A DNA stretch of 29,926 bases from Candidatus Omnitrophota bacterium (GTDB lineage: Bacteria > Omnitrophota > Gorgyraeia > Duberdicusellales > 4484-171): NCBI GenBank assembly GCA_021735045.1, contig JAIPHU010000014.1, forward strand, positions 1 to 29,926. Reading direction: 5' to 3'. Numbering within the stretch: the stretch's first letter is position 1; each line of letters begins with the position of its first letter. The notes under the pieces were generated by a model. That model saw only the letters and a program-made list of their open reading frames with translations, ran no database searches and was not told the origin of the DNA. A program made the translations under genes and the position numbers. Of the stretch, positions 894 through 29,926 are shown piece by piece.

Positions 894-1201
894 TAAATAA
901 TTGCATTAAGTATAAAGGCACTGCGCTAAAGAATTCGGCTTAGTGCCATAAATAAAGGTATTCGCTAAATAATTGCATTAAGTATAAAGGCACTGCGCTA
1001 AAGAATTCGGCTTAGTGCCATAAATAAAGGTATTCGCTAAATAATTGCATTAAGTATAAAGGCACTGCGCCGAGTAATTCGGCTTAGTGCCATTAAAAAT
1101 AAAGGTATTCGCTAAATAATTGCATTAAGTATAAAGGCACTGCGCCGAGTAATTCGGCTTAGTGCCATTAAAAATAAAGGTATTCGCTAAATAATTGCAT
1201 T
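894..1201 (+). repeat. Tandem array 1 of a 72/75-bp hairpin-containing unit (4 full units plus an 11-nt partial unit)
   Basis: Units 897-968 and 969-1040 are identical (72 bp). Units 1041-1115 and 1116-1190 are identical (75 bp). A partial unit covers 1191-1201. Each 75-bp unit holds the hairpin GGCACT GC GCCGA GTAAT TCGGC TT AGTGCC (e.g. 1061-1091). Every reading frame on both strands has a stop within one unit. Confidence 0.95.
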
Positions 1202-5055: not shown

Positions 5056-5688
5056 ATGTTAAAACTTATTTATAAAGAGTTAAGGCATCATATCCGATTT
5101 ACTATTTTTGGAGCCATTACTGGAATTATGGTTATGTTTTTTTTCAAAAATTTACCTGCGGCAATCTCTTATAATATATTTTATATTTTGCATCCTATAC
5201 ATGTGCTGCTAAGTGCATTAGTTACAACCTCGATGTATTCTTTCTACAGTTGCCCTGTCTCAAAACGTAAGTGTAATGTTTGGTTTTTACTGGTAATTGG
5301 TTATTTTGGAGCAATAGGCATTGCGACTTTATCAGATTGTATTATTCCCTATTTAGCTGAAATCTTACTGGGATTACCTAACCGGGAAATTCACTTAGGT
5401 TTCATTGAAAAATGGTGGTTGGTTAATCCTTTGGCAATTTTGGGGGTAGCGATTGCTTATTTTTGGCCGCGGACTAAATTTCCCCATGCCGGGCATGTAT
5501 TGTTAAGCACTTGGGCCTCGCTTTTTCATATTATTATGGCCTTAGGGAAAGAACTTAATCCGTGGTTATATTTGGCTATTTTTGTCTTTTTATTTATAGC
5601 TGTTTGGTTACCTTGTTGTATAAGTGATATAGTTTTTCCGCTTTTGTTTGTAAAAGAAAAAAATGAAGAGGTTCATCAGCACAAATAA
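5056..5688 (+). CDS. Polytopic membrane protein with conserved His motifs (possible metal transport; function unknown)
   Basis: About 6 hydrophobic segments plus His-containing motifs (HPIHVLLS, FPHAGHVLLS, LFHII). I prefer the ATG at 5056 over the TTG at 5047 given by the track. Confidence 0.5.
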   Translation: MLKLIYKELRHHIRFTIFGAITGIMVMFFFKNLPAAISYNIFYILHPIHVLLSALVTTSMYSFYSCPVSKRKCNVWFLLVIGYFGAIGIATLSDCIIPYLAEILLGLPNREIHLGFIEKWWLVNPLAILGVAIAYFWPRTKFPHAGHVLLSTWASLFHIIMALGKELNPWLYLAIFVFLFIAVWLPCCISDIVFPLLFVKEKNEEVHQHK

Positions 5689-5949: not shown

Positions 5950-6645
5950 ATGAATGCGATAACTGCTGGACAGATGAAAAAAGTTGATAAGGCTGCAATG
6001 GATGAGTTTGGAATTCCTTCTTTAATCTTGATGGAAAATGCTGGAAGAGCTGCTGCTGACATTGCTTATAAGATGCTTATAGATAAAAAAGGAAAAGTAA
6101 TTTGCATTTGCGGTAAAGGAAATAATGGCGGCGATGGTTTTGTTTGCGCAAGACATCTTATCAATAAGGGAATCAATATCCTAGTTTTTTTAACCTGTAG
6201 CCGGGATAGATTAAAAGGCGATGCTAAAATAAATTTTTCTATTTTGGAAAAAATAAAGGTCCCCATTTATGAGTTAACCAAAAAAGATGATTTCACAGAC
6301 TTAAAAAATGAAATTATAAACTCACAATTAGTAGTTGATGCAATATTTGGAATAGGTATTACAGGTAAAATAAAGGAGCCTTATTCAGAAATCATAGAAA
6401 CAATCAATAAAAATAAGAATGAAACTTTAGCACTGGATATTCCTTCTGGGTTAGATGCAACAGATGGAGTCCCTTTAGGTAAATGCATAAAAGCTAATAG
6501 AACAGCGACTTTTGCAGCTCCTAAAACAGGCCTTGTGACAAAAGAGGGCCCTGAGTTTTGTGGAGAGGTTATTGTGGTAGATATAGCTATCCCTAAACAG
6601 CTCTTGGGGAGAAAAACGAAAGATACAAGAGACAAAAGAAAATAA
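5950..6645 (+). CDS. nnrE: NAD(P)H-hydrate epimerase (stand-alone YjeF N-terminal domain)
   Basis: Motifs GIPSLILMENAGRAAA, GKGNNGGDGFVCARHL, DAIFGIGITG and LDIPSGLDATDG. No C-terminal dehydratase domain is present. The last 8 codons and the stop lie inside repeat copy B. Confidence 0.85.
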   Translation: MNAITAGQMKKVDKAAMDEFGIPSLILMENAGRAAADIAYKMLIDKKGKVICICGKGNNGGDGFVCARHLINKGINILVFLTCSRDRLKGDAKINFSILEKIKVPIYELTKKDDFTDLKNEIINSQLVVDAIFGIGITGKIKEPYSEIIETINKNKNETLALDIPSGLDATDGVPLGKCIKANRTATFAAPKTGLVTKEGPEFCGEVIVVDIAIPKQLLGRKTKDTRDKRK

Positions 6646-6778
6646 ACAATAAACAAAGGAAGAATAGACAATAAACAAATTACAAATTACAAACAATACC
6701 CAATAGACAATATACAAACCAGAAGCTATATGCTTTTTTGATATCCACTTGTAATTTGGGATTTGTATATTGGAATTT
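6622..6778 (+). repeat. Interspersed intergenic element, copy B
   Basis: 154 of 157 nt identical to 313..469. It overlaps the 3' end of nnrE (stop 6643-6645) and ends 3 nt before the map ATG (6782). It contains the same hairpin with T-run at 6720-6739. Confidence 0.9.
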
Positions 6779-6781
6779 ATT

Positions 6782-27018: not shown

Positions 27019-27041
27019 TTTAATCCAACCATAAGCTTACT

Positions 27042-27186
27042 AAAATTACAAATTACAAATAATAAATTCCAAACAAATTACAAATCTCAAATTACAATTA
27101 ATAAAATGCCATAATTCTATTTGTAATTTTGGTATTTAATATTGTATATTGTTTGTAATTTGGAATTTATGTATTGGAATTTATTG
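27042..27186 (+). repeat. Interspersed intergenic element, diverged copy C
   Basis: Shares the left motif AAATTACAAATTACAAA(T/C)AATA and the right terminus TTGTAATTTGG(A/G)ATTT..GTAT(A)TTGGAATTTATT with copies A and B. It has the same A/C-rich then G/T-rich architecture and fills the convergent gap between smc and the GGDEF gene. Confidence 0.6.
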
Positions 27187-27188
27187 AT

Positions 27189-28349
27189 TTAGCAGGTTAT
27201 TGTGCAGTTTTTACCCTTTCTTTTTGCCTCGTATAAACAGTCGTCTGCTTTTTTAATAAGTTCTTGTTTTTGGGCATGGTCTTTAGGGAAGTTAGCAGCT
27301 CCGATGCTTATAGTAAATTTATAGTTTAAAATTTTATTTTTTTCAATTGCTTTTCTAATTCTTTCTGCCAGCAGATGAGCTTCTTTTTTATTATTGGAAG
27401 GTAAAATTAAAGAAAATTCCTCTCCTCCATAACGGCAAACTATATCAATTTTTCGACAACTGTTTTTTATGATTTGCCCAATTTTTTTCAGAGCTTTATC
27501 TCCTTGAACGTGGCCAAAATTATCGTTATATTTTTTGAAATCATCAATGTCGATCATCAGCAATGATACATTTTGATTGGTTGATTTAGCTTTAGCTAAT
27601 TCTTCATCCAGTTTGTATTGAAAGTAACCGTAGTTCCAAAGGCCGGTTAAAGAGTCAGTATGGGCTTTAGTTAGGGTTAGCTCAAAACTATATGAGTTTT
27701 CAAGAGCTCCTGCTGCTTGTTCAGAAAACATCTCAAACATTTTAAACTCTTCTTTAGTAATATTTTTTTTCGTTATATAGTTATCTACAACTAGTATAGC
27801 TGCAATCTCACCTTTAATTTTTAGGGGGGCTATAATAAACTCATCTAAATCTAGCTTTTTTACTAAAGGGTCATCTTTGAGTTGCTTATTGCCTTTTTTT
27901 ATCCAAAGGATTTCACCTTCTAAGCTATCAAAGATTAAACCGCTTTTTGGATCCACAGGAAATTTAAGTGATTGGATGAATTTCATAAAGCTAGGTTGAT
28001 TTTTCTTATTTTTTTTAATTAAATGATAGTTTTCGATTAAAGTGTATAAGTCTTTTTTTTCTTTTTCAATATGCTGCCAAACCTCCGAAGCTTCTTTTCC
28101 ATTCATCGGGCCAAGCCCCATAAAACCTTCTATTTGTTTTTTTTCATTATTAACAAAAAAAAGTGCTGCGCGATTATATCTTAGGCTTTGATGAGAGGTT
28201 AGCCCGGTCAAAATTATATAACTAATTTCTTCTAGATGGAGAGTTTTCCGCATTGCTTTGGTAAGTTCATAGAATATTTCTAGATGAGATTGAGCTCTTT
28301 TTAGTTCCCTTTTTAGTTTTTTTATTTTATTATCTGCAGTTTTATCCAT
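27189..28349 (-). CDS. GAF-domain diguanylate cyclase (GGDEF) with RxxD inhibitory site
   Basis: GGEEF active site in RYGGEEFSLILP, an RKID motif 5 residues upstream (I-site position), the DIDDFKKYND metal site, and an N-terminal GAF-like region of about 200 aa. Confidence 0.88.
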   Translation of the reverse strand: MDKTADNKIKKLKRELKRAQSHLEIFYELTKAMRKTLHLEEISYIILTGLTSHQSLRYNRAALFFVNNEKKQIEGFMGLGPMNGKEASEVWQHIEKEKKDLYTLIENYHLIKKNKKNQPSFMKFIQSLKFPVDPKSGLIFDSLEGEILWIKKGNKQLKDDPLVKKLDLDEFIIAPLKIKGEIAAILVVDNYITKKNITKEEFKMFEMFSEQAAGALENSYSFELTLTKAHTDSLTGLWNYGYFQYKLDEELAKAKSTNQNVSLLMIDIDDFKKYNDNFGHVQGDKALKKIGQIIKNSCRKIDIVCRYGGEEFSLILPSNNKKEAHLLAERIRKAIEKNKILNYKFTISIGAANFPKDHAQKQELIKKADDCLYEAKRKGKNCTITC

Positions 28350-29749: not shown

Positions 29750-29778
29750 TTGACTCTTGGGTCTATTTTTAATATAAT
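29750..29778 (+). promoter_or_regulatory. Near-perfect sigma70 promoter driving tandem array 2
   Basis: TTGACT (29750-29755), a 17-nt spacer, then TATAAT (29773-29778). The first repeat hairpin starts 20 nt after the -10, and no ORF follows. Confidence 0.6.
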
Positions 29779-29790
29779 AACAGTTTACCA

Positions 29791-29926
29791 AGTACAAGAC
29801 ACTTCGCCGAGTAATTCGGCTTAAGTGTCATTAAAAATAAAGGTATTCGCTAAATAATTGCATTAAGTATAAGACACTACGCCGAGTAATTCGGCTTAAG
29901 TGTCATTAAAAATAAAGGTATTCGCT
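29791..29926 (+). repeat. Tandem array 2 of the same 75-bp unit (1 full unit plus 61 nt, truncated by the window end)
   Basis: Period is 75 bp (29791 vs 29866). The hairpin GACACTT C GCCGA GTAAT TCGGC TT AAGTGTC spans 29798-29829. The linker ATTAAAAATAAAGGTATTCGCTAAATAATTGCATTAAGTATAA is identical to the array 1 75-bp units. Confidence 0.9.

Follow-up and report, generated by a model that had tools for sequence, protein, structure and literature searches.

The DNA analyzed was a stretch of 29,926 nt from a Candidatus Omnitrophota bacterium (contig JAIPHU010000014.1 of assembly GCA_021735045.1, forward strand), referred to as a whole as the window. The feature under study was a tandem array of non-coding, hairpin-bearing units, array 1 (positions 894-1207), located in an operon between a NifX-like gene and a gene for a small Gly-rich protein. 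Array 1 is one locus of a repeat family that is itself new but of a type familiar among bacterial intergenic repeats, and it is not a new kind of RNA system. The element is probably a lineage-specific, structured intergenic repeat that is co-transcribed with its neighbors, can be amplified in tandem and alters mRNA stability or translation of the downstream cistron. Copies were recovered from two loci in the window and from L002, L004, L005, L013 and L020 in four other metagenome-assembled genomes (MAGs), where L001 denotes a sister assembly and L002, L004, L005 and L013-L020 denote Omnitrophota relatives. An earlier annotation made from the letters of the window alone (the first-pass annotation) had described the array at one locus; it is not peculiar to that locus, the family being dispersed over at least five independent sites in five Omnitrophota MAGs and usually present as a single copy.

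Array 1 occupied the entire gap between the stop codon of the NifX-like gene and the Shine-Dalgarno (SD) sequence of the next gene. Tandem Repeats Finder (TRF) was run on the window and returned 894-1201 with a period of 72, 4.2 copies, 97% matches and a score of 514. The components of the array, the unit count being a lower bound, were as follows:

894-1207, + strand: array 1, the inserted element, with 4 full units (AABB), an 11-nt partial unit and the 3' arm of helix P2 (TRF, script, empty relatives)
897-968 and 969-1040, + strand: two identical A units of 72 bp (script; 100% identity)
1041-1115 and 1116-1190, + strand: two identical B units of 75 bp (script; 100% identity)
1191-1201, + strand: partial unit of 11 nt (script)
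Starts at 895, 967, 1039, 1114 and 1189 (last copy 1189-1201), + strand: 13-nt direct repeat AAATAATTGCATT, bounding every unit
917-947 and 989-1019, + strand: hairpin P1, 31 nt, A type, apical stem weakened to GCUAA/UCGGC with one U.G pair and one A.C mismatch
1061-1091 and 1136-1166, + strand: hairpin P1, 31 nt, B type, basal stem GGCACU(G)/(U)AGUGCC, apical stem GCCGA/UCGGC, loop GUAAU
1167-1175 and 1199-1207, + strand: helix P2 of the terminal unit, an inverted repeat with 5' arm ATTAAAAAT, 23-nt loop AAAGGTATTCGCTAAATAATTGC and 3' arm ATTTTTAAT

The AABB layout with its 72 and 75-bp units and partial unit was as first annotated, and so were the differences between the A and B units (4 substitutions, GCCGAGT to GCTAAAG, making GAATTC, plus a 3-nt deletion) and the non-coding character of the array, a stop being found by script in all six frames within every unit. 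The 44-nt 'spacer' was identical in all units, with no unique spacers as in CRISPR. Arrays had a register of n units plus 11-13 nt, which is the spacing set by the 13-nt direct repeat AAATAATTGCATT; the single-copy element of L004 was flanked by this repeat too. The terminal unit was unlike the internal units (GCATTTTTAAT versus GCATTAAGTATAA), giving the array a distinct 3' end. The number of hairpin or linker matches expected from dinucleotide shuffles was zero. Rfam was scanned with the whole window at the gathering score, giving zero matches, and with positions 800-1300 at E<=10, giving only noise (E>0.7, far below the gathering score). The unit had been described as unlike any known RNA family, with an Rfam scan proposed as a check, and at the gathering score that description held.

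The genes and signals on either side of array 1 were:

528-893 (TAA at 891-893), + strand: upstream gene, NifB/NifX family (Nitro_FeMo-Co), 121 aa (Pfam PF02579, E 9.7e-26)
1208-1212, + strand: native SD GGAGG of the downstream gene, present at empty sites as well
1219-1431, + strand: downstream gene, 70-aa Gly-rich protein with CxxC...CxxC (from the open reading frame (ORF) list; DUF5320 assignment weak)

The NifX-like site was compared in four relatives (77-81% protein identity). The gap between the two genes was 13-24 nt in L014, L015 and L016 versus 325 nt in the window. Empty sites read TTAA-AAAGGAGGTAGATTATG in L014 and began TTAAGGAGG in L016/L017, and the gap in L015 was 13 nt. Filled sites contained exactly one unit in L013 and 4.15 units in the window. 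Because relatives show empty sites, array 1 is an insertion between stop codon and SD, and because the empty sites carry GGAGG too, the SD is native and not element-borne. The earlier proposal of an insertion between two normally adjacent genes was borne out by these comparisons. The position of the GGAGG is corrected from 1209 to 1208-1212.

A second array, overlooked in the first-pass annotation, was located at the far end of the same window, where the invariant linker recurs at 29839-29864; the array first described was real and was not the only one. Its features were:

29790-29926, + strand: array 2, C-type units C1 (29790-29864) and C2 (29865-29926 and beyond), cut off by the contig end
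29798-29829 and 29873-29904, + strand: P1 of array 2, basal stem GACACU(U)/(A)AGUGUC
29750-29778, + strand: promoter-like TTGACT-17-TATAAT, 11/12 matches, conserved in relatives with and without an array

Synteny (ETF-SMC-GGDEF-queA) was conserved at this site. In L018/L019 the site was empty, the TTGACT-17-TATAAT promoter being followed by a leader of ~35 nt and then by a gene for an EF-G-family GTPase. As relatives without the array also have the promoter, it belongs to the EF-G-family gene and not to the array, and array 2 therefore lies in the 5' untranslated region of that gene, where it was inserted at the junction between TTTACCAA and GTACAAG. L001 (GCA_021735365.1), 99.98% identical to the window, contained ~3 C units and ended inside array 2. 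L020 was from a different species (QueA 74-76% identical) with an empty NifX-like site; at its EF-G site it had 3.5 D-type units, its contig also ending within the array. The arrays of the window and of L020 started at an identical junction, between TTTACCAA and GTACAAGACAC.

Further loci were sought with a 22-mer of the linker. It hit three genuine loci, spread over two other Omnitrophota MAGs of the same lake series:

L002, sense to flanking genes: single unit between ribBA and ribH
L004, sense to flanking genes: single unit between tig (trigger factor) and clpP
L005, sense: single unit directly upstream of tRNA-Gly(CCC), at a contig end

A linker match in Bacteroides (L003) was rejected as chance, being inside a coding region. 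All five independent sites were sense to their flanking genes. A covariance-model search of 144 kb of related DNA on both strands returned sense copies only and no further copies, and blastn-short over the same 144 kb gave no more diverged copies. Neither of the two sequence patterns matched viral contigs, and blastn against phage and plasmid records gave no match. The family is, as far as searched, confined to a few related Omnitrophota genomes. The basic element was ~95-110 nt and comprised a 5' module AAATAATTGCATTAAGTATAA, the GC-rich bipartite P1 and the AU-rich P2; in the single-copy form the order was AAATAATTGCATTAAGTATAA, P1, ATTAAAAAT-AAAGGTATTCGCTAAATAATTGC-ATTTTTAAT and then GGAGG. 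The 5' module was present in the window, L002 and L004 and absent in L013. Elements lay in presumably transcribed spacers, with the 3' end directly before the downstream SD or the 5' end of a tRNA.

Hairpin P1 was predicted in every copy, with folding energies of -20.9 kcal/mol for the B hairpin and -14.0 kcal/mol for the A hairpin. The loops, as read from the sequences, were GUAAU, GUAAG, GGAAG and GGAAA, corresponding to G-N-A-A-N, which is GNRA-like. The 31-nt bipartite hairpin first annotated is predicted to fold in A and B units; P2, the second helix, joining the last unit to the region before the SD, had been missed. P2 can be formed by the last unit of an array only and can be extended if the 3'-terminal CC of P1 pairs with the GG of the SD. 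It was predicted also in L004, L002 and L005, and L002 keeps P2 though its loop is replaced. The pair probability of P2 was 0.29-0.36 in the window and ranged from 0.01 to 0.96 by context.

Covariation, a test of which had been proposed in the first-pass annotation, was evaluated on an alignment of 11 distinct copies containing 20 pairs (P1 basal, 6; P1 apical, 5; P2, 9). Standard pairs were found in 99.4% of cells and double-sided changes in 8/20 pairs. No column shuffle out of 500 reached the observed value, and sliding the partners by 1-3 columns left 27-43% of cells paired. At least 4 independent compensatory events were identified in P1, namely G-C to A-U in the C/D lineage, CU/AG to UC/GA in L002, C-G to U-A in L004 and G-C to A-U in D. 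For P2, GCUGAAAAU of L005 pairs with AUUUUCAGC through three compensatory pairs. The last two 3' bases of this helix are the first two of the tRNA if the tRNA starts at G 5581; the ARAGORN start of the L005 tRNA-Gly is presumably one base too far 5', judged by the standard acceptor stem. P1 and P2 are thus supported by covariation, and both helices appear to be kept by compensatory substitutions. The strand of action was also sought in the G.U pairs, which were uninformative, the few wobble or mismatch positions being symmetric between strands.

A scan for intrinsic terminators on the + strand found none at the array, and a + strand terminator was ruled out, an A-rich tract following the hairpin. 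Read-through of the array as part of the mRNA is therefore the natural expectation, as first annotated. The reverse complement of a unit consisted of the GC hairpin followed by UUUAUACUU (U-rich). Since an antisense unit would terminate transcription inside the operon, the sense-only orientation may merely reflect selection. The predicted probability that the SD is unpaired was 0.97 at empty sites and 0.20-0.50 at filled sites, with ~0.5 in the window.

One weak promoter-like match, TTAAAA-16-AATAAT (9/12), was observed per B and C unit (1093-1120, 1168-1195 and 29831-29858), and that of the last unit would start transcription just before the SD. A unit-borne promoter of this sequence was rejected, the match being not above shuffle expectation in this AT-rich region. 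By eye, the sequence fitted neither the consensus of a boxA/nut-like antitermination site nor the one required for mimicry of a tRNA minihelix. A CsrA sponge was also rejected, since the GGA in the AAAGG motifs was not conserved.

Copies were compared within and between genomes. The elements of the window and L013 were 72/74 (97.3%) identical, versus 41-48% identity at fourfold-degenerate sites of the flanking genes; the occurrence of B-type sequence across genomes would indicate recent spread or homogenization, or very strong constraint. As the old copies (D and L002) have many changes in loop and linker and yet keep the helices, recent mobility together with selection on structure is favored. 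C and D units at the orthologous, older EF-G site were 84% identical between species and 97-100% identical within an array, from which concerted evolution within arrays follows.

The mechanism proposed is as follows. The family would have spread as a selfish or mobile sequence, and arrays would grow when replication slips, or recombination is unequal, between the 13-nt direct repeats or between whole units, growth being followed by concerted evolution. The element would be co-transcribed with its operon, where its P1 and P2 helices would loosen the tight coupling of stop codon and SD seen at empty sites, array 1 adding a 325-nt separation and four stable hairpins. SD accessibility would be lowered, and the P1 hairpins and P2 would probably serve as RNase barriers or processing points. 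The net effect would be an altered expression ratio of the upstream versus the downstream cistron. Three options had been put forward for the array in the first-pass annotation; a MIRU-like intra-operon repeat, combined with a hairpin effect on the mRNA, comes closest to this mechanism, and a processed small RNA gained nothing.

Several results weigh against this explanation. Action at the RNA level is inferred from orientation, position and covariation, and hairpins in single-stranded DNA would give the same covariation as RNA. Only ~11 distinct copies were collected, and the covariation in P2 comes from one copy only (L005). P2 is also thermodynamically marginal, with a pair probability of 0.01 in L013 and 0.04 in L002. 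A metagenome scan with a hairpin-agnostic pattern, CATTAAGTATAA-N(27-37)-CATTAAAAATA, returned 7 loci (L006-L012), none with a hairpin and all attributable to chance. Neither a transposase nor terminal inverted repeats nor a target-site duplication turned up in annotated flanks or at empty/filled junctions. Finally, the persistence of arrays of several units at the EF-G site of two species could point to a selected function that goes beyond tolerance.

An element acting at the DNA level was considered as an alternative and is judged unlikely. P1, with or without P2, would form hairpins in single-stranded DNA for an HUH/Y1 transposase (REP/RAYT, IS200/IS605-TnpA) or would be a site for a nucleoid protein, and any RNA effects would be incidental; this is compatible with a co-transcribed structured repeat and would supply its mode of spread. 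Subterminal hairpins of IS200/IS605 are imperfect GC-rich palindromes with an internal mismatch. P1 is an imperfect GC-rich palindrome of this form, as in REP (PMC3184786), and its covariation fits DNA hairpins equally well. An element identity of 97% against 41-48% at neutral sites, which are saturated, also fits recent mobilization. However, no Y1 transposase or RAYT was present in any annotated flank, the tandem units were direct only, with no inverted REP pairs (REPIN-like), and P1 and P2 were dissimilar whereas the left and right-end hairpins of IS200/IS605 resemble each other. The G-N-A-A-N loop in addition looks like an RNA constraint of the GNRA type.

A dedicated cis-regulatory leader (a thermometer, a protein site or a riboswitch-like element), in which P2 gates the SD and P1 is a sensor or protein-binding hairpin, is rather improbable. 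In three different genes the SD is directly preceded by the 3' arm of P2, which CC:GG pairing can extend into GGAGG, the predicted accessibility of the SD drops from 0.97 to 0.2-0.5, and P2 has its three compensatory pairs in L005. That copy, with the clearest P2 covariation, precedes a tRNA, which has no SD. The downstream genes moreover have no functional relation to one another (a small Zn-ribbon protein, RibH, ClpP, an EF-G paralogue and a tRNA), internal units cannot form P2, the P2 loop of L002 is replaced and in several contexts the helix is weak.

That the element is a domesticated RNA 'leader cassette' and not a tolerated parasite was considered to be no more probable than such a regulatory leader. 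A GNRA-like-capped P1 stacked on P2 would be recognized by a specific endoribonuclease or RNA-binding protein, and the bound protein would set new 5' ends just before the SD or tRNA. Operon mRNAs and tRNA precursors would be cut and stabilized there, with tandem arrays tuning the dose. If true, this would account for the multi-unit arrays kept at the EF-G-family gene in two species, for P2 tracking the first tRNA bases and for the near-invariant sequence between genomes with saturated neutral sites.

Processing of the arrays into unit-length small RNAs (ToxI-like, CRISPR-like or a sponge) is very unlikely. The units are tandem, identical and hairpin-bearing, contain the A/G-rich motif AUAAAGG twice each, and array 2 has a near-consensus promoter directly before it; this promoter is however that of the EF-G-family gene, kept with a short leader in array-less relatives, and no array other than array 2 has a promoter. 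Most loci have a single unit, and no ToxN, Cas, toxin or nuclease gene is adjacent, the flanks being conserved housekeeping genes. The 'spacers' are identical, unlike those of CRISPR, the lack of GGA conservation makes a CsrA sponge unlikely, and there is no Rfam match. The processed multi-copy small RNA of the first-pass annotation was accordingly dropped.

A plain local minisatellite or assembly artefact, in the sense of a one-off duplication with no family and no selected structure, can be dismissed as extremely improbable, since although AABB is a minimal assembler path through self-looping repeats and contigs of two assemblies break in arrays, leaving the exact copy number unreliable, the unit occurs at independent sites in separate assemblies, including the single copy in L013, and has compensatory substitutions, so that the element is real and not locus-specific and only the unit count is uncertain.

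The count is affected by the way in which such arrays are assembled. B and C units have an exact 43-mer in common, because of which short-read assemblers break or minimize at arrays. AABB is the shortest assembler path with A-A, A-B and B-B junctions, and four units are therefore a lower bound. Judged from the coordinate offset, the L001 contig would begin at ~1063 of the window, within array 1, and this sister assembly thus probably breaks in array 1 as well. Contigs ending in the repeat were observed in four MAG assemblies: the window (at 29926), JAIPHE010000015.1 (probably at both ends), JAIPHC010000016.1 and JAIPHF010000033.1. Listed by locus, the repeat-broken contigs are those of the window, L001, L005 and L020. 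The repeat family systematically breaks the assembly of these genomes.

The element was compared with described repeat families; it resembles BOX, MIRU and Neisseria REP2 and is a member of none. Effects on mRNA decay or processing or on translation are documented for REP, SMAG, ERIC, Correia and BOX elements (PMC3049150, PMC3184786). BOX of Streptococcus pneumoniae, boxA-(boxB)n-boxC, is likewise a small interspersed intergenic repeat with a module in variable tandem number, has predicted stem-loops when transcribed, and is co-transcribed with its neighbors, whose expression it is thought to affect (PMC3049150). It has no sequence similarity to the present element, and BOX has distinct terminal modules of inverted-repeat character and can carry ORFs, whereas here the repeated unit itself bears the hairpin, the bounds are 13-nt direct repeats, the frames are closed and all copies recovered are sense.

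MIRUs share with the present element units of 40-100 bp, often in tandem, inside operons between co-transcribed genes, as well as internal inverted repeats that are GC-rich and orthologous sites that may be empty or filled (PMC3184786). Here, tandem units of 72-75 bp lie within an operon in which all flanking genes are on the same strand, and empty and filled orthologous sites were found at both the NifX-like and the EF-G site. The small ORFs of MIRUs have ends that overlap flanking genes, and their short flanking direct repeats are taken as target duplications; all six frames of the present units are closed by stops, and no target-site duplication could be detected. Neisseria REP2 (120-150 bp) is alike in having two stem-loops directly upstream of ORFs. 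REP2 is however reported with its own promoter, ribosome-binding site and ATG, whereas here the SD is native to the target site and the only strong nearby promoter is that of the host gene; tandem arrays are also no feature of REP2 according to a review.

REP/BIME and SMAG elements are, like this one, GC-rich imperfect hairpins in transcribed extragenic DNA, single or clustered. REP clusters typically alternate in orientation. SMAGs carry GTAG on the 5' side, an association with RAYTs is described for REPs, and REP/SMAG have documented copy-number-dependent effects on mRNA stability (PMC3184786). By contrast, the present units are strictly direct, have no GTAG before P1 and include an extra AU-rich helix, and no RAYT was seen, the annotated flanks containing no Y1_Tnp domain. 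The element also differs from a MITE (a transposable element of the miniature inverted-repeat type), as its ends are not mutual inverted repeats (the P2 arms being only internal or 3'-terminal) and no duplication is present at the empty/filled junctions. Like the arrays here, ToxI-type antitoxin arrays of type III systems repeat a short structured non-coding unit directly and in tandem, in sense upstream of a gene. In contrast to these, neither a ToxN-like endoribonuclease (or AbiE-type) gene downstream nor a terminator between array and gene was found, and the element is usually single-copy and dispersed beside housekeeping genes. Of the properties of a structured RNA, compensatory substitutions are present, those in P2 on one sequence only; that the element is transcribed is suggested by its location within operons and, for array 2, behind a promoter.

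Among cultivated bacteria, small interspersed repeats are well known from Proteobacteria, Firmicutes and Actinobacteria. A full-text literature search on Omnitrophota and intergenic repeats gave unrelated papers only and found no small interspersed repeat described for this uncultivated phylum. The family opens no new category of system; it is a clean case, in that orthologous sites are found both empty and filled, two helices covary, orientation is strictly sense and arrays evolve in concert. It may be of use as a strain-typing marker for these MAGs, and the breaking of contigs at arrays is a warning for assembly and binning. A small natural experiment on operon expression could also be offered by loci in which 1 to 4+ stable hairpins separate a stop codon from the SD that follows.

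The gene downstream of array 1 had been labeled DUF5320. Pfam gave no match for its 70-aa product, DUF5320 at E<=0.01 included, and the L013 orthologue matched DUF5320 only below threshold (22.6 bits against a cut-off of 27); the assignment is weak. The protein has a Gly-rich N-terminus and CxxC...CxxC at the C-terminus. In L016, gene calling split the region orthologous to this gene into two tiny ORFs of 40 and 24 aa; L015 has an EncFtn-like gene in its place. The operon position of the 70-aa gene is evolutionarily unstable.

A second, unrelated repeat was observed in the window. This is a long imperfect palindrome of ~165 nt that is rich in AC/GT and looks MITE-like; its left side has AATAAAC/ACAAATT heptamers and its right side TTGTAATTTGGGATTTGTATATTGGAATTT. 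Its copies in the window were:

308-472 (region 302-527): second repeat
6617-6781: second repeat, 97% identical to 308-472
27040-27190: second repeat

The first of these fills the 226-nt gap (302-527) between two NifX-like genes that are directly adjacent in L013, L014 and L016. Fragments of its arms were present in L014 (404-452) and L016 (570-611 and 17465-17589). As this MITE-like repeat sits in the same operon as array 1, the genome tolerates or accumulates intergenic repeat insertions. In L005, at ~5270-5520 (minus strand), the 3' end of tRNA-Gly(CCC) and ~60 nt downstream of it (CCGCTCGCCCGCTTACTGAGACTTATAATTTTCCCAGCCAA...GTAATC) were directly repeated ~190 nt later, in what resembles an att-type duplication remaining from an element that had integrated or been excised.

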